Below are positions 6,001 through 25,308 of a stretch of DNA of 64,000 nucleotides, piece after piece. Source of the DNA: an uncultured virus (IMG/VR IMGVR_UViG_2061766007_000872) (taxonomy: Duplodnaviria; Heunggongvirae; Uroviricota; Caudoviricetes); the IMG/VR virus record IMGVR_UViG_2061766007_000872. One strand, written 5' to 3'. The stretch's first letter is position 1. Each line of letters begins with the position of its first letter. Under the pieces are notes generated by a model, which had not been told where the DNA came from, did no database searches, and saw nothing but the letters and a program-made list of their open reading frames with translations. The position numbers and the translations under genes are program-made.

Positions 6001-7100
6001 GAATAAAAAACAAGAGTCTATAGAAGAAGATATTGAGAAACATGATACATTAAATCAAAAACTCTTTGATGGTGAAGAATTAAAACCTGAAATTAAAGAG
6101 AAGATTGAACAAATTGCTTATCAGTTTGTCAATGAATTAAATGAAGATGGCATTAGATTCACACTTAAAGATATTGTCTTATTAGGCAGTAATGTTTCTT
6201 ATAACTATACAAAAGATAGTGACTTAGACATCCACTTAATTGCAGATTCAAGTGGCTTAGAATGTCCAGACAACTTATATCCACTTCTTTATAGTGCATA
6301 TAGAAGTATGTTCAACAAGAACTATGACATCAAGATTAAAGGTATTCCAGCAGAAATCTATGTTGAAATGGATGAACCAGTTGCAAAGAGTAACGGCATC
6401 TATTCTTTAAATAATGGTTGGTTAAAGAAACCTGAACAAAGAGATATTCCAGACTTAGATGAAGAAGCATTTGATAAACTCTTCAATGAGTGGGAAGATA
6501 AATACTTTGAATTAATGGAAAAAGATGCTACAAGTGAAGATATAGAAAACTTCATTGAAGACTTATATGATTTAAGAAAAGAATCAATAGCAACAGAAGG
6601 TGAATATGGCCTTGGTAATCTAGTCTTCAAAGAATTTAGAAATATTGGTTACTTAGATGGCTTAAAAGAATTAAGAAAAGAGAAGAAAGGTAAAGAACTT
6701 TCTCTTGAACAATTAGAAGAAGATGCTAAGGAATCAAAGTTCTATGATACATTAGATACTGGTGCTACATTTGATTTAAATACTCTTNNNNNNNNNNNNN
6801 GTATATATTGTTCCTGTTGACTCTAAGAATTGGGATGATGAAAAACCTACATTAGAAGAATTTAATAAAGAGTTTTATAAATTTGTAAATGCTTATAGAG
6901 GAAAGAATGATAGAAAGTATGTCATAGGCACATATCATAATGAAGATACTGGTAGATATTCTATTGATATCAGTATTATTTTACCTGATAATGATGATAC
7001 AGCATTTGAAATTATAGATGACACTCAAGAAGAATTAGGACATCTTGATTCAGAAGGTAACTATGAAGATGTTAAGAATCCTAAATACAAAGCAAAGTAA
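3062..7100 (+). CDS. Large acidic multi-module protein with a pol-beta-family nucleotidyltransferase module
   Basis: ORF 3062..6820 resumes after the N-gap (6788-6800) as VYIVPVDSKNW...KYKAK* ending at 7100. Contains LLGSNVSYNYTKDSDLDIH (GS...DxD) and many LxE linkers. Confidence 0.7.
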
Positions 7101-7104
7101 TTCT

Positions 7105-7121
7105 TGCTAAATTAAATGATA
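7105..7121 (+). promoter_or_regulatory. TGCTAAATT motif, putative late promoter
   Basis: TGCTAAATTAAATGATA, intergenic. Confidence 0.7.
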
Positions 7122-7156
7122 AAGTATATAATTTTGTATAAACGGAGAAATTTAAT

Positions 7157-7983
7157 ATGAATGATATTAAAGAACTTGCAAAATGGCTAAAAGATGAAGT
7201 TGAATTCCTCAAAGCAAATCAAGATTATGTTGGTGGCTGGTATGACTTGGGTAATGGTCTTGCCGCAACAGTTCTTTGGGAAGATGGTTGGGGAGATGAA
7301 GCAAGNNNNNNNNNNNNNNNNNNNNNNNNNATTGGGCATTATGTGCAGGTGTTATGGTAATTAATAAAGATGACACACCAGATGGTTGGTTTATGCCTTG
7401 GGATAGTAAAACTGGTGATTTACTTTGTGAAACTACTGGCATTACTCCTAATGAAGACTATGAAAAACTTGCTAGTTGGCTATTAGATGATTTCAATAGA
7501 CTTAAAGGTGCTGATATCAAATCAAACGGTGAAACAATTTTTGGTGACCCAGAAAGAGAACCAGAAGCACTGGTAGAAACATCTGTTGAAGTTGAGGAAG
7601 AATCTTGTGAGTCTTGTAATAAAGAAGACAAGAAACCTATAAAAGAAGAAAATGAAATCCATAATTCTCCATATAAAGATATTATTGCAGAATATTTTGA
7701 CTATAGCGGTGATATGGAATTCTTAGATATCGTTGCATCTTGTCTAGAAAGAGTTGAAGACTTTGAAGACGATGAAGATATCTATAGCGCAATAGATGAT
7801 GAATTAATTTATACATATGACCAGTGGAAAGTTCTAGAACACTATTGTACTCCACAAGAAGCAAATTGGGATAGTGCATATAGTGATTTCATGAGTGATA
7901 TTTTTGCTATTTGTTCTAGAATTGCTGGTATGAATAATAAAGAAGATGACTTAGAAGAACCTGAAGAAGGAGAAGAAGATTAA
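7157..7983 (+). CDS. Acidic hypothetical protein (one gene split by an N-gap)
   Basis: GGAG RBS before ATG 7157; ORFs 7157..7360 and 7354..7983 flank the gap at 7306-7330. Confidence 0.6.
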
Positions 7984-9485
7984 TGGATAAGAAAATTAAT
8001 GAAGAAGTCCAAGAAGAGGCTTATAAGATTGCTGACCATATTTTAGATGCAATTAAAGATAGAGACACAATCACTAAAGATGAGTTTGAAGAACAAATTG
8101 CATTAGCATGTAGAGAACTCTATGGAATTGATAATGTTTGGGAAACAATGGACCATGAAAAAGGTTTAGCGACAATTAATGATAAGCAATTTGATATGAG
8201 TGACTTAGATGCAGATATTAGAGGAATTCTTAGTTATAAAGGATGGGCTACTGATTTTAAAGATGGTGACTTAACAACTAAAGAAATTGAAAATGAATCT
8301 TTGAAAGAAGATGCAAATGAGCCTAAATTAGAAACATTTGAAGAAAAGATTGATTTCTTAGTTAAGGATGAAGACGAAGCAATTGCTGGCTATGACAAGA
8401 TTATTGCCATGTTAGGTGATGACAGTGCCAATGCCATTGAACAATTAACACATATTAAAGAAGAAGAAATTGCACATAAAGACTTCTTAGAAGTTCTTAA
8501 GAAAGACCCAAGTGCTATCTATAATCATGAAGATGAAGAAGAACATGATGAATCTTTAAAAGAAACTTTAGAATTTGATGCAATGGAAGACCTCAAAAGT
8601 GAAGTCTATCATGCTCTTTCAGAAATCTATGCTAAGTATGAACTAAAAGGTGCTACACTCAACGAGTTTGACTCCGCAGTTGATTTTGCAACTATTCATA
8701 TGAGAGATGAATTTGGTGAATCTTTAAAAGAAGATACTGAAGTTGAAGCAGAAGTTAAAGTTGAAGAGCCAAAAGAAGAAGAACCAGTTGAAGAACATCC
8801 AATTGAAACAACAGTAGAAGAAGTTAAAGAAATTGCTTCTGAAGTTGCAAATAAAGTTGTAGAACCAGTTTCTACTGAAGAAGAAGCAGATGAACAACAA
8901 GAAGCAATTGAAGAAATAGTTGATGAAGTTGTTGATGATAAATTCGGTGAAGATGATGACTTTGATGATGAAGATGAAAAGATTGTCAGAGACAATGATG
9001 AAGTCATTGATTTAGATGATATTGATGATGACTTCGGTTTTGATGAAGAATTAAAAGAAGATACAGTCAAGAAAGACAACAAATGGGTAAATAAAGGTAA
9101 AGAAGGTACTCACGGTGAATTCAAGACTAAGAAAGAAGCAGATGCTCAAAGAAGAGCCATGTTCGCTAATGGTTATCATGAAGAAGTTGAAGAAGACTTT
9201 GATGATGACTTTGGTGGTGGTAGTGATAAGTTTGTTCCAGGTGAAGCAGAACACTTTGGTGTTACAGTGAATTGGGATGACATGGATGATGTTGAAGAAG
9301 AAGATACTAAGATGTTTAAGAAAGTCATTAAGAGTACAGATGATGAAATCTTAGACAAACATTTTGGTAAAGATACACCTGAAAGAAAATTAGTTGGTGC
9401 TATTAAAAAAGACATTGATGAAGAAACACATGAAACAGGTCATATCAAAGCAAAGAAACCAATTGAATTAAGAGCAAGAAGATAA
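7983..9485 (+). CDS. Acidic multi-module protein with a ferritin-like (ExxH) half-domain; putative prohead core/internal protein
   Basis: ESLKE three times (8295, 8550, 8718); DEDEAIAGY...EEEIAH module. Confidence 0.65.
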   Translation: MDKKINEEVQEEAYKIADHILDAIKDRDTITKDEFEEQIALACRELYGIDNVWETMDHEKGLATINDKQFDMSDLDADIRGILSYKGWATDFKDGDLTTKEIENESLKEDANEPKLETFEEKIDFLVKDEDEAIAGYDKIIAMLGDDSANAIEQLTHIKEEEIAHKDFLEVLKKDPSAIYNHEDEEEHDESLKETLEFDAMEDLKSEVYHALSEIYAKYELKGATLNEFDSAVDFATIHMRDEFGESLKEDTEVEAEVKVEEPKEEEPVEEHPIETTVEEVKEIASEVANKVVEPVSTEEEADEQQEAIEEIVDEVVDDKFGEDDDFDDEDEKIVRDNDEVIDLDDIDDDFGFDEELKEDTVKKDNKWVNKGKEGTHGEFKTKKEADAQRRAMFANGYHEEVEEDFDDDFGGGSDKFVPGEAEHFGVTVNWDDMDDVEEEDTKMFKKVIKSTDDEILDKHFGKDTPERKLVGAIKKDIDEETHETGHIKAKKPIELRARR

Positions 9486-9492
9486 ACAATAC

Positions 9493-9522
9493 TTGACAAT
9501 TAATATAAGAGAGATGTATAAT
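9493..9522 (+). promoter_or_regulatory. sigmaA-type promoter
   Basis: TTGACA-18 nt-TATAAT; overlaps a terminator-like hairpin. Confidence 0.45.
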
Positions 9523-9544
9523 ATCATATGCATCTTTTTTATTT
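9512..9544 (+). terminator. Intrinsic terminator
   Basis: AGATGTATA/TATGCATCT stem followed by a T-run, just after stop 9485. Confidence 0.55.
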
Positions 9545-9550
9545 ACAAAA

Positions 9551-9567
9551 TGCTAAATTAAACAAAA
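9551..9567 (+). promoter_or_regulatory. TGCTAAATT motif upstream of the RNA island
   Basis: TGCTAAATTAAACAAAA; 3' half diverges from the consensus. Confidence 0.55.
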
Positions 9568-9573
9568 TAACTA

Positions 9574-9602
9574 TTGCAATTTGAAAAATAAATTGTATAA
9601 TA
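9574..9602 (+). promoter_or_regulatory. sigmaA-like / TTGTATAATA promoter for the RNA island
   Basis: TTGCAA-16 nt-TATAAT. Confidence 0.55.
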
Positions 9603-9633
9603 GTATATAGATAATGCACAGAGTTGCTTTATC

Positions 9634-9696
9634 GGGCATGTGAGTAGTATTCCTCCTTTTCAAAATTAAATAATTCATTGACTAAATCACATGCTT
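9634..9696 (+). ncRNA. Hairpin presenting an anti-Shine-Dalgarno (UCCUCCUUU) loop
   Basis: GCATGTGA (9636-43) pairs with TCACATGC (9687-94); loop contains TCCTCCTTT (9651-59). Confidence 0.4.
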
Positions 9697-9766
9697 AGCC
9701 GAGAAAGTTTGGACATAAGTTCACTTTCCAGGGTTTGTAAGTTTTCCCTAAAAACTTACTTGACAT

Positions 9767-9841
9767 CGCAGGGTGGAACAGTGGTAGTTTGCTAGGCTCA
9801 TAACCTAGAGGTCGGTGGTTCAATCCCATCCCCTGCAACCA
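9767..9841 (+). tRNA. tRNA-Met(CAT), initiator (fMet) type
   Basis: Cloverleaf: acceptor CGCAGGG/CCCTGCA with C1:A72 mismatch, A11-U24 pair, anticodon arm CTAGG-CTCATAA-CCTAG, T arm GGTGG-TTCAATC-CCATC, encoded CCA. Confidence 0.95.
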
Positions 9842-9875
9842 ATTGAATATCCTTAGGCTTTATAGTCTAACGGTG

Positions 9876-10541
9876 ATAGATGGTAGGATTACCAGTCAAC
9901 CACAGTAACTGGTCGGGACCCTATATGGACGTTAACCGTAGGAGTGTTGACACTTCAGTGCACTAACAAGTGTTAGCACTGGTTATTTAAGTCTAGAAAT
10001 AGACACAAGACAAATGGAGTGGGACACCATTACCCACAGGGCTGAGCAACCTTATGTTCAATGCTTAGGACATTAACCTTTGCTTCAAATGGTAAGTAAA
10101 CCAGTGAGAGTAATTAACTCATTGAAGGATAAGAAGCATAAACAATATTGCTAGGGGTGTCAGTAATTAAGACATCCCTTGATTGGTAATTACATCTCAT
10201 GATGTGGTTATAAAAGTCTAAACATTGGGTAGAAATATTCGGTCGTTTAGGATTATGAGTCTTCATGATTCATAAGCACGGAGGCACACCCTCTATGATA
10301 TAAAGCACGGTGAACTGCCGTTGACGAATGTCAGATTATGAAGGAAGTGTTACCTTCTGATATGAGCAAATCTATCTCACTATGCTTAGGACAATAACCT
10401 TGAAGATGAAAGCACAGATATCAAATAAGTCTTCTAAACAATTTAATTCCTAGTCCCAGCCTTGTGCGTAAGTGGTCGGTGCTCCAGGTAAGTGGAGAAA
10501 AGTAGAATAGACTACGAACAAATCTTACCTACCTCATCTAT
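9876..10541 (+). ncRNA. Candidate large structured ncRNA (~670 nt; ROOL/GOLLD-like context)
   Basis: No long ORF and higher GC than flanks. Ends pair (ATAGATG/CATCTAT; GTAGGATT/AATCTTAC), GNRA-capped hairpins, an internal duplicated module, and it starts ~35 nt after the tRNA. Confidence 0.7.
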
Positions 10542-10682
10542 AGTTTCTAAATGTGTAAGACTAAATTATCGGCTATGTCTTTGAAGAAGCATGACCTTCT
10601 AATTAGCCGAGCATGCGATAGATTGAACACTAGGATAATATAGGACCTAGCATTTTTGTTAAAAAGAAAGGAAGAAGTAATT

Positions 10683-12014
10683 ATGAAAAAGAGTTTAAAG
10701 TTACTTTTTACAACATTAGCGTTGTTCACATTAGGATTAACTTCTTGCGGTACTAGAACTACTTCAAGTTCAACTGGTCCTGAATGGACAATTAAAGAAG
10801 ATGGTCATTTATATCATTTTGATGAAGATTTAGGTGATGTCACTGGTCCAAAAGGTGACAAAGGTGACCAAGGTGAAAAGGGCGATACTGGTGAAACAGG
10901 TGCTCAAGGCCCTAAAGGTGATACTGGTGAAACAGGCCCACAAGGTCCAGCCGGTCAAGATGGTGCAAATGGTCAAGACGGAGCAAACGGACAAGATGGT
11001 GCTCCAGGTGCCGATGGCAAAGATGGTGCTGATGGCAAAGATGGTGTTGGTATCAAAGACATTAGTAGAACAGACAATGATGGTGTCATGGATACCTACA
11101 CAATTACAATGACAGACGATTCAACATTTACATTTAAAGTTCCAAATGCTCCTACAAGTATGGCAGTTGTCAATAATAGAGTTGATGGTGACGGTGTTGA
11201 TTTACCTTATTATGTTGGAACAAGTGCTCCATTAGACATCACAGTTACTGCTACATTTGTTGATGGTAGTGAAATGGAAGTTAAGTCATTTGAAGTTACT
11301 GGTTTTGATACAACAACCGCTGGTAAGAAAGATGTTGTTGTTAAACTCGGTGCATTAAGTGATGCATTCAGTGTTGATGTTGTGAGTATTAGTGATGAAG
11401 TTGCTGATGCATTATCTGCAGAAGGTGTTAATGATACACTTCCAGGTTTAAGTTCTGGTGCAGTTGATTATCAATATGTCCCATCAGTGAATGTCTTATT
11501 AATTGCTTTAGATGAAGATGCAGACACAGATGCTATGATTACTCAATATGGTGCTGACTTAGTTGCCGCAGGATTCACAGCAGCAGGTGCTGACAGTTAT
11601 GGTGATATGCATTACTTATCTCCAAATAATGAATTTGATGTTTGTGCTTGGAATTACTATGGCTTAATTAGAGTTGACATCAAAGTTTATGCTCCATTCC
11701 CATTAGACCAAGTTAACACATTCTTAACAACTTATGGTTATTCATTCACATTTGATGCATCAATTGGTGAAGCATTCGGTAGAAACACTTGGATTGCTGA
11801 ATCAGATGAAAGTAGTGGTTATCATTATTTAGCCATTTATCTTGAAGGTGGTGACTATGTTGATGCTTGGAAAGCCATTCTCAATGATACATTAGTTGCT
11901 AATGACTTTGAATGGGATGATACATACGGATTTGTCAATTACACAACATATAAACAAATTAGTGTTTACTATAATGCTAATTATGATGTCTCAATCATTC
12001 AAATTTGGGAATAA
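10683..12014 (+). CDS. Lipoprotein with collagen-like repeats and an Ig-like domain
   Basis: MKKSLKLLFTTLALFTLGLTS-C lipobox; G-X-Y repeats; VTATFVDGSEMEV..FDTTTAGKKDVVVK Ig-like segment; RBS AAAGGAAG. Confidence 0.8.
   Translation: MKKSLKLLFTTLALFTLGLTSCGTRTTSSSTGPEWTIKEDGHLYHFDEDLGDVTGPKGDKGDQGEKGDTGETGAQGPKGDTGETGPQGPAGQDGANGQDGANGQDGAPGADGKDGADGKDGVGIKDISRTDNDGVMDTYTITMTDDSTFTFKVPNAPTSMAVVNNRVDGDGVDLPYYVGTSAPLDITVTATFVDGSEMEVKSFEVTGFDTTTAGKKDVVVKLGALSDAFSVDVVSISDEVADALSAEGVNDTLPGLSSGAVDYQYVPSVNVLLIALDEDADTDAMITQYGADLVAAGFTAAGADSYGDMHYLSPNNEFDVCAWNYYGLIRVDIKVYAPFPLDQVNTFLTTYGYSFTFDASIGEAFGRNTWIAESDESSGYHYLAIYLEGGDYVDAWKAILNDTLVANDFEWDDTYGFVNYTTYKQISVYYNANYDVSIIQIWE
10845..11051 (+). repeat. 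Collagen triple-helix G-X-Y repeat
   Basis: GPKGDKGDQGEKGDTGETGAQGPK...GADGKDGADGKDG. Confidence 0.9.
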
Positions 12015-12017
12015 AAG

Positions 12018-12027
12018 TTGTATAATA
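12018..12027 (+). promoter_or_regulatory. TTGTATAATA promoter-like motif at the start of the large non-coding region
   Basis: The same motif precedes several replication genes. Confidence 0.5.
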
Positions 12028-12029
12028 TA

Positions 12030-13662
12030 TTAGCCAAAGCATGTAAATGTTAAAAGACCATGGGTTTATGCTTAGACGGTAAACCTCAATTCTGGTGGGC
12101 TATGTGAAATTGAAGCATATCGTTAAAGAAGTAGGACAAATAAACAAAACCTCTTAATGAAAAATAAAATGCTAAATTATATACAAAGAGGATACTGCCC
12201 AACCTCTTTAAAAACATGAGAAACGGTTTTATGAGGAGCCGTGCAACGAAAGTCTTCCATGTAAAGTGAATGCTTTACAACAAATCCAATTTTATTGGTC
12301 ATAAGTTAAATCTTATGCTTCCCACTACTTCACAGAACTATTAGGCATAAAATCCTAGCAAAGAATTGATAATGTAGATGGGATATTGTCTAGGGATATG
12401 TATTAAGCATGTTCCTTGATGTAAACAACACAGTAATGTGTGAAATTATCCTAATGTCATGAACATTAGGCATCAAGAGAAACTTCGGTTTCTCAAGTAT
12501 GATAGTTACATCTCTTGAAATATTGTCTAAGATGTACCTGCGAGGCAACTAAGATGATAACAAAGAAGATGTGATTATAAATCTAATAACTATGTAAACC
12601 TCACCGACTGGAGTAACATTGTATCCGTAGGGATAGTGCCAGAACAAGTATTAGTTATTAGACTGATGAGAGTTGAATAGGCCAAGATTAGCCTTGAGAA
12701 ATCATTGTCTATGACGGTAAGTCCCGCATAGGGAGCCATTTAATCTCACAAGAATAGTGAACCCAAGTTGGCAAATGAAGCCTCCATCGGTTCATGACCT
12801 ATGAAGTTTGTACATGATAGCAAATGCAAATGGAGGTTTTATGTGAGTTGGTGTGCTCATGCTATCTAGATGAAAAGAAACTTAATCTAAGTAGTTGAAG
12901 AAAAAGACATCTTTAAAACTCCTCACTAACTGCTGACCGACATGAGGCAACAGTATTCTAGATTATAGTGAGGATGTTTAAGTTCTCTAAGCCTAGTCAC
13001 CTAGCAAATGATTCATCTTGGAGATGATGATGCTATAAGACTCATTGTAGTAGTACTTAGTCTACAGGGCAATGTTCCACCACCTGGTACTTGAAATTCA
13101 ATTTAGAATCTTCAAGTGATACGCTTAGCATCTATGATATTGGCCATATCAAATGAAATAAGACTAAGACAAAGCCGGGGAATTCCAGGAACTTACTCCT
13201 GCAAGGAGGGGTTGAGCCCTCCCTTAATTGATATTGACTCTTAATTGAGTTGATATAGATTACCTCCTTTCTATGACAAAGAGTGTAAACTCTAGTCTAG
13301 GTTGACTACTTACCTGAAGCAATCTATCAAAGAAGTGGAAGATGGTAACAACAGAAACTCTTGTAAACAGAAACCATCTATGTTGGTGAAACACACTCAA
13401 ACTTATAGATTTATTCTATATCTATAAGTCATACGACGGTAATATGCTCGTCTGAAATGGCCGGTATATTGCTCTCGTGTTAGAACATCATGCTACCCTT
13501 GTGGTTGAAGAGAATGAAGATGGTTATCCATCAGGTAGTGAGAATCATAAATCCTAGTATAAGTGATAACTACATGAATGTTCATCATTCCGTGAAAAGA
13601 ATACAAACACGGTAGACACACTAATGAAAATAGCATATACTTGATTATGTGCTTAAACATGC
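12030..13662 (+). ncRNA. Candidate very large structured ncRNA or ncRNA cluster (~1.6 kb)
   Basis: No ORF of 60 aa or more on either strand. Dense hairpins, including a C(UUCG)G loop at 12477-12494, GCAA/GUAA tetraloops and nested long-range stems. Bounded by promoter motifs and a terminator. Confidence 0.7.
12170..12186 (+). promoter_or_regulatory. TGCTAAATT motif inside the non-coding region
   Basis: TGCTAAATTATATACAA. Confidence 0.5.
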
Positions 13663-13697
13663 AAAACACCTAGAGACTTATCTAGGTGTTTTCTTTT
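13663..13697 (+). terminator. Intrinsic terminator
   Basis: AAAACACCTAGA-GACTTA-TCTAGGTGTTTT followed by CTTTT. Confidence 0.85.
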
Positions 13698-13733
13698 GCA
13701 AAAATGTTAAAAATTATACAATTTTTATATAAT

Positions 13734-13750
13734 TGCTAAATTTAATGATA
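13734..13750 (+). promoter_or_regulatory. TGCTAAATT motif, putative late promoter
   Basis: TGCTAAATTTAATGATA. Confidence 0.75.
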
Positions 13751-13778
13751 AAGTTTATTTTTACATGGAGAGTAATAG

Positions 13779-14525
13779 ATGACACTTCAAGAATATGTAG
13801 ATAATATCAAACTTGAGTTAACTGGTGGTGTTCTTGAGTTAGAAGTTGATGATGATACAATTGGCAAATATGTCATGCAAGCACTTAGAGAAATTCAAAG
13901 ATATATTGATGAAACTAAGTTAGTGCAAGTTCCATTTTCATCTTGCATTGATTTAGGAGAATATGTTGATGAACAAGGTAAGAAGCATGAATTTAAGCAT
14001 AGTTCAATAACAAATGTTTATAGATGTGAAGCAGTTGGTGACCAGGGCAAAGGTAATGGCGGAATTAGTAGTGTTGACCCAGCCTATGCTCAATTTTGGT
14101 TAGCATCAAGTAATGGTAGTTCAATGTATAATTTAAATAGTTGGTTAATGAACTATATGACATATAACACATTACTTCAATTGAGAAATACTACTTCTAC
14201 AGACTTAGCATTTAGAGAAGATAAACATCAAAATAAACTCTATATCAATGTCTCTGCTGGTAGACCAGATTATATTGCAATTGAGTATGTACCAATCTTT
14301 GAAGATGTTGATGACATTAAGAGTGATTATTGGAAAGAAATTCTATATAGACTTGCATTAGCAATTACTAAAATGGGTTTAGGTAGAATTAGAACATGGG
14401 CAAAACAAAATAATGCTTTGTATACAGTTGATGGAGATACAATACTTGAAGAAGGTAGAAATGAAAGAACAGAAATTGAACAAAGATTAATACAAAATAG
14501 TAATTTATTCTATCCAGTTGATTAA
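13779..14525 (+). CDS. Head completion/neck protein (T4 gp13-like)
   Basis: N-terminal IKLELTGGVLELEVDDDTI and C-terminal LALAITKMGLGRIR...VDGDTILEEG pattern; position before tail genes. Confidence 0.7.
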   Translation: MTLQEYVDNIKLELTGGVLELEVDDDTIGKYVMQALREIQRYIDETKLVQVPFSSCIDLGEYVDEQGKKHEFKHSSITNVYRCEAVGDQGKGNGGISSVDPAYAQFWLASSNGSSMYNLNSWLMNYMTYNTLLQLRNTTSTDLAFREDKHQNKLYINVSAGRPDYIAIEYVPIFEDVDDIKSDYWKEILYRLALAITKMGLGRIRTWAKQNNALYTVDGDTILEEGRNERTEIEQRLIQNSNLFYPVD

Positions 14526-14535
14526 GGAGATACAA

Positions 14536-17500
14536 ATGGGAAAATTAGAAACATTAAGAGCAGAATTAGAAAAAGCAAGAGAAAAACTTCATGCTAGAGG
14601 ATTTGAATATGATGGTAAAGCAAATGGCTATAAGGAATTAATGGCCGCAAAACCATTTGAAATTGCATATCAAGATGTTATTGAAAAGATTTGGCCAGAT
14701 AATGCTTGGTGGGAAGTCACACATTATTGGGATATTTTTGATGCAATGATGGGTGGTTTCAGTGATGAAGAAGTCATTGATGAAATTTGTAAGCATGTCG
14801 GTAAAGATTATCTTGATGAAGAAGTTGAATCAAATGTTGGAGGCGCATATGTTGAAAAAGGTCACAACATGAGAGAATACATTGAAAAGTTTGGTGATGC
14901 TTATGATAATGGCGAACTTTGGGATTTCTCAAAAGAAGATTTTGAAAATGGTGCAATAGATGTTAATCCATACATTATCTATTGGTATATGCAAGATTTA
15001 GATGGTGAGTGGAGATATTTTGAAACTAATCTTGAACCTAAGAAAGAATGTGTTAAAGAAGAAAAAAAGTTAGATGAAGGTACTTCTAATTTTGGTGCAG
15101 GTCCAGAGCATTTTCCATTATTAGTTTTCTATACTTATGATGAATATTTATATAATTTGACACATGCTCAAGATTATCCTCAAGAAGAACAATTTGAGGA
15201 TGAAGATGGCAAAATAGATTGGGATGCATTTGAAAATGCTAAAGAAGAATTTGAATTAAAATATGATGAATCAAATAAAATTTGTGTTTTAGATGAAGAT
15301 ACACAAGAAAGATTAGAGAATAAACTCTATGACTTTAATGAAGAATCTAAGAGAATAGCATGGGATGCAGATGTTGTTGATGGTGAACAACAATATGGCA
15401 ATAATCTTAGTCTTGAAGATGTTAAAGTAAATATTGAACCTGGTTATTATAGTGCAGCATATATTGATGTTGAGCATGAAGACTATCTTGAAGATTTAGA
15501 TGAAGATTTCAAAGCAAAACAATTTGAAAGATTTACTAAGTTATTCCAAGAATTAAAATCTGAATTTGGTTTAACTGAATTATCTGCTGGTCCTATGGCT
15601 TCTAATGGTGAAAGAGGTTACTCTATTGTCAATAATGAATCTTTAGACGAATCAAATAAAAAATATGCTTTAGTTGTTAATGGTGAGTGGTACTCAACTT
15701 ATGATTCATATGAAAAAGCACAAAAGGCACAAGAAAGATTCTTAGATGCAATTGATAATGATGAAGATGCTCAAAAAGAATATGGTGCTTTTGCAAATGT
15801 TGAAATTAAAGAAGTTAATGAGTCTTTAAATGAATCTATGGAAAGTGAAGTCACTAAATGGTGGAAAGATGTTGAAGATGCCAATAAAGAAATGAAATGG
15901 GATTTCAAGATTGACAATGGCGACTATAGCGATGTAGAAGCAATGCACGCAGCAATGTTTGACATGCTAGATGACCTTAAAGAAAAAGGTGCTAGTGACT
16001 TATTCAATAGAGGTAAAAAGATTTATAATAAATATGCTATTAGTAAATATAATGAAGAATTAAAAGAATCTTGCAGTGATAAAGAACTAGTTGATAAATT
16101 AGTTGCATTTGGTACTTGTGCTGATGAAAAAGAAGCAAAAGAAAGAGTTGCTAAAATGTCTAAAGAAGATAAAGAAAAAATGTGTAAATCTCTTTCCGCT
16201 CAAGCAAAAGACCATTTATTAAATGATTCTTTAAATGAGTCTGATGAGGTTGCAAGAGTAGAATATTGTGTTATGGATAAAGATAATAACAATATTGAAT
16301 GTTTTGATAATACTGATGATGCCATTGCTTTTGCTAAAGAGCATGAAGGTATTAGAGTTCTTGAAGTTCAATATGGACCAAAAGATGAAAACGGTGATGA
16401 AGAAGAATTAGGTTGTGAAGAAGTTTGGTCTATTAGAGAATCTTTAAAAGAAGANNNNNNNNNNNNNNNNNNNNNNNNNNNNNNNNNNNNNNNNNACAGG
16501 TGACCCAGCCAAAGATGCTGCCTTCTTTAATCATGCTATGGGCAGTGATAAAGGTGATGTCAGTGTTGAAAAATCTTCAGTTAGTTTAGGTGAAGGTTAT
16601 GTTGGACAAGATGTTGAAGACTTCTTAGATGTCATTAGTGACAATGAAGCAATTGAAACATTAGTTATCTCTAACATTGATGCAGATGATTATACAGAAG
16701 CATTCAAAGGTAAATATGAAGATTTAGATAGTAACTTACTACATTGTGAATATGCAGACTTTGATGTTGGTGGTGATATTTTAGTTGTCAATGTTAAAAC
16801 TGAATCAGATGATTGGAATGATTTATACTATGATGACTTGGAATCACTCTTAGAAGACTACAACGGCGATGAAATTAGAATTATAGATGTAGATACTGGT
16901 GAAACACTTTTTGAAGGTGATAAAGAAGATATTGATGATGAAGTTAAGGGATTAACTTTCTGGTCAATTGATACACCTAAGTATCTATGTGTTAATGCTC
17001 ATTGTGGTGAGATTGAAGACCTTGAACCAGATTTCGGTGAAGATGATGAATTAAAGATTGAATACTGGTATGATGAAGAATCTAGAGACCAAGGTTTAGG
17101 TGATATGTACTTTGGTGAAATTGAAGATGAAGAAGACGGCAAAAGAATTGTCAGAAAGATGATTGATAGAGATGGCTTTGCTTCAGCAGAACTTCAAAGA
17201 GGTGATACAGTTCTCTTTGGCTATGATGGTGAATCAACATGGGGAGAACTTGCAGAATCTTTAGATGAAGCATCTCATAGAGGTATGGATTATTATGAAT
17301 ATAAAGGTTGTCATGTTAGAGAAACACCTTCTTGCTTTGTTGCAACTGATGAACATGGCACAACTTTAGGTGACTCTAAAACAAAAGCCGGTGCAGAAGG
17401 AATCATTGATGACCATGTTGCTAAGAAAGATGAAAAGTTATCTAAGAAGCAAATAGATAAGAATGTCAAGAGAAATCTTGCTTATCTTAAGTGGCAAGGT

Positions 17501-24724: not shown

Positions 24725-24754
24725 AATTTTACTTCCCTCAATCTTTACTCTTCT

Positions 24755-24783
24755 ATTATAATAGTGTTTTGATGTTATGTCAA
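24755..24783 (-). promoter_or_regulatory. Consensus sigmaA promoter
   Basis: TTGACA-17 nt-TATAAT on the minus strand. Confidence 0.85.
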
Positions 24784-24998
24784 TATAATTTTATTTTGCC
24801 CATCTTTAAGCAATCTTTTAGATAGTCAAATTCTTTTGGACTCAAAAAGTAGTCTTGTTCATATACGCCACCATAATTGTAATTAAATAAGCAAGATGCA
24901 CCTTTTAAAGCAATAGCATTGACTCTTTTTTCTTGAAATATTTTTTCTGCTTTAGAGTCATTGATTTCAACTTTGAATAATCCACATGTTGTAGTCAT
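24780..24998 (-). CDS. Hypothetical protein with its own sigmaA promoter
   Basis: 72 aa ORF; GAGGA RBS. Confidence 0.65.
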   Translation of the reverse strand: MTTTCGLFKVEINDSKAEKIFQEKRVNAIALKGASCLFNYNYGGVYEQDYFLSPKEFDYLKDCLKMGKIKLY

Positions 24999-25026
24999 AA
25001 ATTGTTCCTCAAACTTCTACAATACT

Positions 25027-25055
25027 ATTATATAAGTGTATCAAGGAGATGTAAA
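25027..25055 (-). promoter_or_regulatory. sigmaA promoter
   Basis: TTTACA-17 nt-TATAAT on the minus strand. Confidence 0.7.
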
Positions 25056-25084
25056 GTATATTTTTAAAATTTTTTAAAAATGAT

Positions 25085-25101
25085 TGCTAAATTAGATGAG
25101 A
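25085..25101 (+). promoter_or_regulatory. TGCTAAATT motif, putative late promoter
   Basis: TGCTAAATTAGATGAGA. Confidence 0.65.
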
Positions 25102-25123
25102 TAATTGAAAGGAAGCAATACTC

Positions 25124-25306
25124 ATGATTAAAAAAGAAGATGAAAGAGAACTAAAGATTATAGGTGTTCAGTTACCTAAACATCTTAGAAAACCATTAGA
25201 AGAAGAGGCTGGATATATGTGTTTATCCATTTCAGCAATGATTAGATTAATACTAGCACAGAGATATAGAGATGATGCTAAATTTAATGATGTGGAGGGT
25301 GATTAA
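25124..25306 (+). CDS. Ribbon-helix-helix DNA-binding protein
   Basis: IIGVQLPKHLRKPLEEEA...LSISAMIRLIL matches the CopG/Arc pattern. Confidence 0.65.
   Translation: MIKKEDERELKIIGVQLPKHLRKPLEEEAGYMCLSISAMIRLILAQRYRDDAKFNDVEGD
25276..25292 (+). promoter_or_regulatory. TGCTAAATT motif embedded in the 3' end of the RHH gene
   Basis: TGCTAAATTTAATGATG, 33 nt before ATG 25309. Confidence 0.65.
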
Positions 25307-25308
25307 TT

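Follow-up and report, generated by a model that had tools for sequence, protein, structure and literature searches.

The stretch from 12030 to 13662 (region B) of the window, by which we mean the whole 64,000-nucleotide DNA of an uncultured virus (IMG/VR record IMGVR_UViG_2061766007_000872) that was analysed, is a genuine transcribed, structured non-coding locus, and the source is a large low-GC cattle-rumen myophage. Region B has no coding signal, belongs to no Rfam family, is matched by contigs from RNA libraries, has ORF-free homologues in related phages and contains a covarying module, and these observations support the first-pass annotation, made from the sequence alone, that it is a giant phage ncRNA or an array of ncRNAs. 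As between those two, an array fits better, without the choice being settled. The covarying module, a three-helix motif, appears to be an RNA family present in no catalogue searched here, a view supported by its covariation. The coordinates of all features are collected in Table 1.

Coding capacity, structure and transcription of region B

The window is gene-dense and low in GC (~31%), with ORFs of at least 100 aa nearly all on the + strand; the products that can be recognised include a tail sheath, a head-tail adaptor and a collagen-repeat protein resembling a tail fibre. The gap at 12015-13778 runs from the stop of a collagen-repeat gene (12014) to the start of the adaptor gene (13779), and the earlier claim that no ORF of 60 aa or more exists here on either strand is confirmed under table 11, where the longest are 58, 52 and 49 aa. 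Alternative genetic codes do not open the gap, the maxima being 109 aa under table 4 (with 5 TGA read through), 105 aa with TAG read as Q and 124 aa with TAA read as Q. Recoding of the large downstream gene was also rejected: its 1069-aa homologue spans two window ORFs, but the split is an N mask at 16455-16495.

Table 1. Features of the two ORF-free regions and their surroundings (positions in the window)
Feature	Position	Strand	Evidence or content
Sister ORF-free region A	9486-10683	+	two promoters, tRNA-Met, modules M2 and M1
tRNA-Met	9767-9841	+	ARAGORN and Rfam; only tRNA in the window
Module M2, two copies	10028-10125 and 10346-10443	+	in region A
Module M1	10472-10658	+	in region A
Sigma-70-like promoter, extended -10	11998-12026	+	TTCAAA-17-TATAAT, TG before -10; 10/12 matches; just past the lipoprotein gene stop
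ORF-free region B	12030-13662	+	transcribed; folded modules plus lineage-specific structured sequence
Phage's own upstream motif, 1 mismatch	12170-12180	+	TGCTAAATT(T/A)A; motif search of the window
Module U1	12400-12529	+	UUCG hairpin 12477-12494; homologous to L006 1881-1998; nhmmer E 3.9e-4
Hairpin domain	12582-12757	+	stem 12582-12592/12652-12662 plus what follows; absent as a block from a related RNA contig
Conserved three-helix motif	13069-13226	+	R2 model match, covariation; CCACCA ahead of P0
Motif helix P0	13083-13088/13174-13179	+	encloses a variable insert; then the GAAUUC linker
Motif helix P1	13186-13190/13197-13201	+	then CAAG
Motif helix P2	13205-13210/13217-13222	+	loop GUUGAG
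Module M5	13234-13400	+	conserved with L001 8353-8542, L006 2782-2933
Module M6	13483-13640	+	conserved with L001 8594-8765
Intrinsic-terminator hairpin, 12 bp	13663-13692 (13663-13674/13681-13692)	+	then TTTTCTTTT; sequence and MFE fold

Perfect inverted repeats (arm of at least 7, loop of 3-120) number 44 in 12030-13662 versus 16.7 +/- 5.6 in 200 dinucleotide shuffles, of which none (0/200) reaches 44; three coding controls of equal length hold 31 versus 24.3, 29 versus 25.2 and 23 versus 22.7 in their shuffles, none of them significant. The 12030-13000 segment folds to -255 kcal/mol on the + strand (z -4.58) and to -229.7 kcal/mol on the - strand (z -4.92), and because the two z values are similar they cannot tell the strand. 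In 240-nt windows the mean z is -2.6 in region B (n=6) versus about -0.75 in coding sequence (n=23), a noisy measure with 25 shuffles each. Structure in region B is thus in excess of both shuffles and coding controls. All nine of the stems listed in the first-pass annotation are present at their positions, AAGCCTCCAT/ATGGAGGTTT with one G.U pair, and two of the nine conflict with the comparative model set out below: CTCCT-GCAA-GGAG (13196) uses strands of the covariation-supported helices P1 and P2, and CTTAGTCT/AGACTAAG (13056/13161) crosses P0.

Among the 21 public sequencing runs listed, 20 contain part of 9486-13778; 14 are RNA libraries, from five studies, and two DNA runs are the probable origin of the sequence. 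We compared four RNA runs, from four cattle-gut studies and all in the form of assembled contigs, with 8000-15500; their contigs fall on 9645-10651 and 12187-13670, with the reading limits that assembled contigs cannot show strand, ends or level and that RNA libraries can hold DNA. One contig (X3, 578 nt) is identical to 12589-13166, and word depths are 38.6-40.1 in one run (X4, 48 million letters) and 73.5-81.6 in another (X8, 197 million letters). Individual contigs of 529-578 nt cross several predicted domains, and some bridge the end of the upstream lipoprotein gene into region B. A related contig from X8 skips the 176 nt of 12582-12757, with 'GA' between, and the differences listed at 13411-13419 fall in the loop of hairpin 13401-13429. 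In each of the four studies there are contigs that end within 13612-13670, close to the terminator, a pattern that counts as a weak hint. The flanks at 13773-15500 and 9004-9505 have next to no cover in the four runs; missing cover is no evidence here, and the runs were moreover chosen by words from 9486-13778. Shares below 0.2 in the other runs likewise carry no weight.

The two promoter motifs claimed at 12018 and 12170 are both present, one as a sigma-70-like site and the other as a one-mismatch copy of a motif of the phage's own. Promoter-like sites in 9000-14500 are no commoner than in shuffles (25 versus 23.2), so the promoter scan alone proves nothing. A similar TTGTATAAT promoter lies ahead of region A (9574-9601) and in the related contig L001 at about 7040-7053. 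The phage motif has eight exact copies in the window, all on the + strand and most a short way ahead of a gene start (those at 13734, 22342, 25276, 32772 and 38083 among them), with an exact copy ahead of region A at 9551. The strong terminator claimed at 13663 is also there, a hairpin with its TTTTCTTTT tail that forms in the MFE fold; it is missing from the output of a simple terminator scan, and homologous hairpins stand at 9158-9185 in L001 and at 2951-2978 in L006.

The three-helix motif and its tRNA company

When the best-conserved patch of region B is aligned with its relatives, the hairpin stems differ in sequence yet still pair. In its compact form this motif has a core of ~79 nt, consisting of CCACCA, helix P0, GAACUC, helix P1, CAAG and helix P2 with the loop GUUGAG, and P0 encloses a loop or insert of up to about 290 nt. 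Members were gathered by scanning IMG/VR and GTDB contigs with patterns in which some of the primary sequence is fixed, though not the covarying stem letters. A stricter pattern was passed by 15 of the 142 loci fetched in two scans; three of the 15 duplicate contigs already collected, another (L075) looked like a chance match from its coding context and was left out of model searches, and the loci that fail the stricter pattern are chance matches in coding DNA of unrelated organisms.

Across 13 sequences 94.8% of cells pair and 8 of the 15 pairs change on both sides (29 cells), for a covariation score of 0.479 versus 0.220 in shuffles (0/500 reach 0.479), figures to be read with the structure having been drawn by RNAalifold from the same alignment. 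When the partners are shifted by 1-3 columns, pairing is 31-58%. Covarying helices are thus found in one module of region B, 13069-13226. A U.G pair occupies one P0 position in 7 of the 13 sequences and G.U pairs occur in P1, so that the motif fits the + strand only; in this module, at least, the + strand RNA claimed from the earlier stems holds. For region B as a whole the + strand is suggested by the G.U pairs, the promoter, the terminator and the gene orientation taken together.

A covariance model (R2) whose 12 seed sequences exclude the window and its close relatives matches 13069-13226 on the + strand only, at 64.5 bits (E 2.7e-15) over positions 1-89 of 89 and with no non-standard pair flagged. 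The window copy is a member of the three-helix family, with P0, P1 and P2 all formed and with the CCACCA, GAAYUC, CAAG and GGUUGWGCC-loop elements in place. R2 also finds L021, L006, L026, L001, L149 and L022, and L009 weakly; a second model, R1, returns 22 matches at E <0.01 in 48 sources, some of them outside its seed. The single-sequence MFE fold of the window does not form P0 or P1. Two other pairings were tried and rejected: the helix AGUUCC/GGAACU is seen in the close family but fails in the compact forms, so that P0 took its place, and a pseudoknot of the P2 loop with CUCAGC is, by our reading, uncompensated where the loop differs.

The motif occurs in about 20 other viral or MAG contigs and is single-copy in all but one of them (L168, which has a second copy); the window has one copy, as do the whole records of two relatives. 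It is absent from the full records of two more distant relatives, G001 (86% complete) and G002 (99% complete), and is therefore dispensable in this group. In 7 of 15 loci the motif-bearing element, of 119-349 nt, lies between co-oriented tRNA genes, and there the tRNA often starts about ten bases or fewer past P2, so the motif can stand on its own as one element within the transcript of a tRNA cluster. The 12 motif loci that were scanned hold about 100 tRNA matches, in large phage tRNA arrays, and two ROOL RNAs, both on the motif's strand, one about 0.9 kb away (L156, 333.3 bits) and one, truncated, several kb away (L089). The window copy has its nearest tRNA 2.2 kb upstream, with a protein gene between, and because that is the window's one tRNA, the label 'tRNA-array RNA' describes a context borrowed from other phages.

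Relatives, modules and the sister region

Relatives were sought with a profile of the large downstream protein in IMG/VR and JGI metagenomes. Three distinct ones (n=3, L006 being duplicated as L007) have an ORF-free gap at the same place, between a 500-aa gene and the adaptor gene, of 2369 nt in L001, 1924 nt in L006 and 1330 nt in L009. Coding flanks are about 75% identical to L001, and inside the gap identity is confined to patches of 72-100%, which we name M1, M2, the M3/M4 core, M5, M6 and U1; their order and spacing vary between genomes. Module M1, for example, adjoins the three-helix motif in L009 and L026 and is far from it in the window. Searches farther afield returned no match: 50,697 isolate phage records (blastn, tblastn) for the region, a neighbouring protein or the compact motif; IMG/VR in a single-protein search with the 248-aa adaptor; and GTDB contigs in a protein-profile scan.

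For most of 12030-13068 (1.05 kb), which holds the majority of the stems first listed, L001, L006 and L009 offer no detectable counterpart except to U1 and a 39-nt patch, so that the structure of this part comes from single-sequence statistics only. The U1 profile matches only the window and L006, and its UUCG hairpin recurs in L006 with, by our reading, a compensatory change in the stem. M5 begins with a near-invariant TTACCTCCTTTCTATG (13260-13275), followed by a hairpin of different sequence in each genome; the GTAA hairpin at 13281 gives way, in L001 and in L006, to other hairpins in the corresponding position.

Upstream of region B, the product of the gene that begins at 10684 has a lipoprotein-type signal peptide and then collagen-like repeats, and on the other side of this gene lies region A. 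One of the two region A promoters is a perfect TTGACA-18-TATAAT, and past the tRNA-Met there is 0.84 kb of GC-raised sequence; one folding window of region A reaches z -6.3. Regions A and B have no similarity to each other beyond chance. The lipoprotein gene is absent from L001, and the L006 and L009 gaps have no ORF of 80 aa or more; A-type and B-type modules are contiguous in all three relatives, and the tRNA-Met of L001 stands at the far end of its gap. From these arrangements, regions A and B appear to be one 'RNA island', split in the window by the lipoprotein gene. The island itself is a mosaic of separately conserved modules, with fast-changing, indel-rich yet hairpin-rich sequence between them.

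Known RNA families and the nature of the transcript

A search of the whole window against Rfam 15 at gathering score returns the tRNA-Met only (9767-9838), and a search of 11500-14200 at E up to 10 returns only weak rows far below threshold, so that region B lies in no known family at either setting. The same is true of the motif: no Rfam family matches it in the 12 loci at gathering score, and none matches a compact copy (L160 3915-4045) even when E up to 10 is allowed. ROOL (RF03087) gives no row in the window at gathering score (99.1 bits) or in 11500-14200 at E up to 10, with L156 as positive control; GOLLD and OLE give none in the window at gathering score or at E up to 10, nor in L001, L006 and L009 at E up to 1. 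A tmRNA, including the two-piece or permuted form (the CCACCA...GGGG words), was rejected as well: ARAGORN is negative in the window and in 20 motif loci, no Rfam tmRNA model has a row in the window, and the earlier statement that no tmRNA could be recognised stands. An array of tRNAs or decayed tRNA genes in 12015-13778 was set aside because tRNA models match nowhere in 11500-14200, even at E up to 10. The words CCACC...GAACUC we take to resemble 5S rRNA, for which there is no row at E up to 10 in the window or in the compact motif of L160 (3915-4045).

The closest comparisons are of context. In the tRNA cluster of phage T4, small stable non-tRNA RNAs (rnaC and rnaD, 'species 1 and 2') lie among tRNA genes and on the same transcripts; the inter-tRNA position of our motif in 7 of 15 loci resembles this in kind, a likeness of context and not a claim of relationship, and in the window the motif differs in standing in a kilobase-long, tRNA-poor unit and not in a tRNA cluster. 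PMC5737381 describes ROOL as a large RNA of rumen data, phages and prophages, often beside tRNAs, and GOLLD as a large RNA of bacteria and phages that frequently lies close to tRNAs and within prophages; GOLLD is also reported, in PMC12286853, to form RNA-only assemblies. With ROOL the motif shares the rumen and phage occurrence, the tRNA neighbourhood and, in two loci, the strand, but it has three helices and about 80-90 conserved positions where ROOL has six multistem junctions, and the window's unit, poorly conserved overall, is roughly three times as long as ROOL (581 nt). With GOLLD the likeness is again the tRNA-neighbour context; unlike GOLLD, the unit has no Rfam match and a single conserved large fold is not evident here. 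Fremin et al. 2023 (PMC10690425) report 8,495 unnamed candidate structures from IMG/VR, where most members of the motif were also found, and some of these overlap tRNA predictions or are tRNA-like. Full-text literature searches found no description of the three-helix motif, which the unnamed PMC10690425 candidates may include.

What follows on the ends, processing and function of the region B transcript we infer rather than observe. The long transcript is probably, though by no means securely, a precursor or array yielding several stable RNAs; an array is likelier than one giant RNA because the RNA is modular and its core motif is an independent inter-tRNA unit elsewhere. The + strand unit may be driven by the host-type promoter together with the phage motif, and processing like that of tRNA-cluster transcripts would then most likely release several stable RNAs from the transcript, which would act in trans. 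From the company of tRNA arrays and ROOL one may speculate about a role in translation, in a tRNA-related takeover of the host or in counter-defence.

The main competitor is one giant ornate RNA of 1.5-1.65 kb, running from ~12030 or 12190 to the terminator, in which the motif would be the core and the variable sequence peripheral domains, a larger analogue of GOLLD and ROOL. It draws on one promoter region and one strong terminator that bracket the stretch with no convincing internal terminator in region B, on hairpins that are dense throughout, on RNA contigs long enough to span several predicted domains, on relatives that run 1.2-3.3 kb from promoter to terminator, and on the large insertions in P0 and P1 (up to about 290 nt), which resemble the peripheral domains of ornate RNAs. 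Against it, the motif stands in other phages as a unit of 119-349 nt between tRNAs, the order of the modules varies and most of the 5' kilobase is unconserved even in close relatives, and no long-range helix closing the whole of region B was found in a fold with pair span of up to 400 nt. We regard a single giant RNA as rather unlikely. More doubtful still is a bolder version, in which the motif would be the core of a new, abundant class of phage RNA that travels with tRNA arrays and ROOL and has grown in this lineage into a single ornate RNA of at least 1.5 kb, larger than GOLLD. An RNA of this kind could act directly on the host's translation machinery, with a candidate site in the near-invariant pyrimidine tract that lies exposed at 13260-13275 and presumably resembles the mRNA-binding 3' end of 16S rRNA.

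Region B might instead be junk, a decayed spacer left over from a tRNA array or from dead genes, transcribed only by read-through and with the motif its sole functional piece. Six to 21 tRNAs surround the motif in relatives versus one in the window, most of 12030-13068 is unconserved, and the RNA contigs that run on from the lipoprotein gene are what read-through would give. Yet 11500-14200 yields no tRNA remnant at E up to 10, the excess of inverted repeats and folding energy over shuffles extends well beyond the motif, GC is raised (0.34-0.39 inside region B versus 0.27-0.33 in the downstream genes), M5, M6 and U1 are conserved outside the motif, and a gene-dense phage keeps 1.3-2.4 kb at this place in three syntenic relatives; a spacer of this kind is accordingly improbable.

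An element acting at the DNA level or in cis (an origin, a packaging site or a long leader for the downstream structural genes) has in its favour that region B immediately precedes the genes for the head-tail adaptor and the tail and is flanked by copies of the phage upstream motif, but between region B and the adaptor gene stand a strong terminator and a distinct promoter motif, iterons or tandem repeats are absent at region B beyond chance two-copy matches, covarying helices with G.U pairs argue for RNA and not DNA, and elsewhere the motif precedes tRNAs and not a conserved gene, all of which leaves this explanation very improbable. Least credible is a cluster of very small protein genes, each under 60 aa, for which eleven stop-to-stop frames of at least 35 aa (39-61 aa) are open in region B, but 0/11 has a credible Pfam or PHROG match (the sole row is HCMV_UL116 at E 0.018 and 14.7 bits versus a cut-off of 30), the conserved blocks vary by indels and hairpin swaps with no three-base pattern, and the conserved SD-like complement at 13260-13275 is, by our reading, not followed by a start codon on the - strand.

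Few big structured RNAs still lack a known function; the phage-borne GOLLD and ROOL are two of these, and both are known for their tRNA neighbourhood. With the present locus a third structured RNA family, unrelated to the other two, joins them in keeping company with tRNAs, which suggests that phage 'tRNA arrays' may be broader RNA islands. The family's sizes, from a 79 nt core up to kilobase-long units, form a natural series in which to study the role of extra domains. Its compact members are covariation-supported targets for structure probing, pull-downs and cryo-EM, and the word depth of the locus is high in small rumen RNA libraries.

Conserved tracts in the ORF-free region

The tract TTACCTCCTTTCTATG is identical in the window and the related phage locus L001, with one base changed in a second relative, L006. 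It is mainly unpaired in the MFE fold and may resemble the anti-Shine-Dalgarno tract, with which 16S rRNA of Firmicutes ends at its 3' side. Close to the 5' end of their ORF-free region, L001 (7078-7114) and L006 (1338-1374) also share a 37-nt block at 100% identity, far above the similarity of their coding DNA; no window counterpart of this block was found in blastn and nhmmer comparisons.

Features of the RNA island, its relatives and other motif-bearing contigs
Feature	Position	Strand	Remarks
TTACCTCCTTTCTATG	window 13260-13275; L001 about 8399-8414; L006 about 2826-2841
TGCTAAATT(T/A)A, exact copies	window 7105, 9551, 13734, 22342, 25276, 32772, 38083, 41832	+	
Promoters, two	within window 9486-10683		one a perfect TTGACA-18-TATAAT at 9493-9522
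tRNA-Met	window 9767-9841		inside ORF-free 9486-10683
Conserved modules M2 and M1	within window 9486-10683		in the 0.84 kb that follows tRNA-Met
True ROOL RNA	L156 2508-3110	-	333 bits
True ROOL RNA	L089 7765-8036	-	111 bits

Region A and the gene within the RNA island

The sister stretch, region A (window 9486-10683), likewise lacks an ORF and has raised GC. RNA contigs cover window 9645-10651, the folding z is -6.3 for 10040-10279, and a 20-nt word, ATGCTTAGGACAWTAACCTT, occurs at both 10061 and 10382. The product of the gene at window 10684-12014 begins with a lipoprotein-type signal peptide, continues into collagen-like GXY repeats and has PHROG tail-fibre matches. Because this gene interrupts the RNA island midway and has no counterpart at the corresponding place in the three relatives compared (L001, L006 and L009), it looks like an inserted moron.

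An upstream motif of the phage and other gaps

All eight exact copies of TGCTAAATT(T/A)A in the window are on the same strand, mostly shortly upstream of gene starts, and the motif recurs ahead of genes in three relatives (L001, L002 and L004), within patches matched by blastn. It is probably a promoter motif of the phage itself, perhaps of the late class. Two further gaps lack any ORF of at least 80 aa, at window 6821-7353 (533 nt) and 24725-25308 (584 nt), and the TGCTAAATTAA motif occurs without mismatch in the former. A masked run of N at 16455-16495 splits a gene, so that its 1069-aa protein appears as two ORFs of 661 and 400 aa.

ROOL and a tRNA-like element near copies of the new motif

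In both L156 and L089, contigs carrying the new three-helix motif, ROOL, a known large structured RNA, lies within a phage tRNA array, downstream of the motif and on its strand, at about 0.9 kb in L156 and several kb in L089. About 60-260 nt upstream of the L089 motif copy (reverse strand) is a tRNA-like 3' half, uncalled by ARAGORN: a T-arm-like hairpin followed by a strand with an ACCA end. Some 150 nt upstream stands a word, GGGUCGA, to which this acceptor strand is complementary, and the element is possibly a long tRNA-like RNA of an unusual kind.
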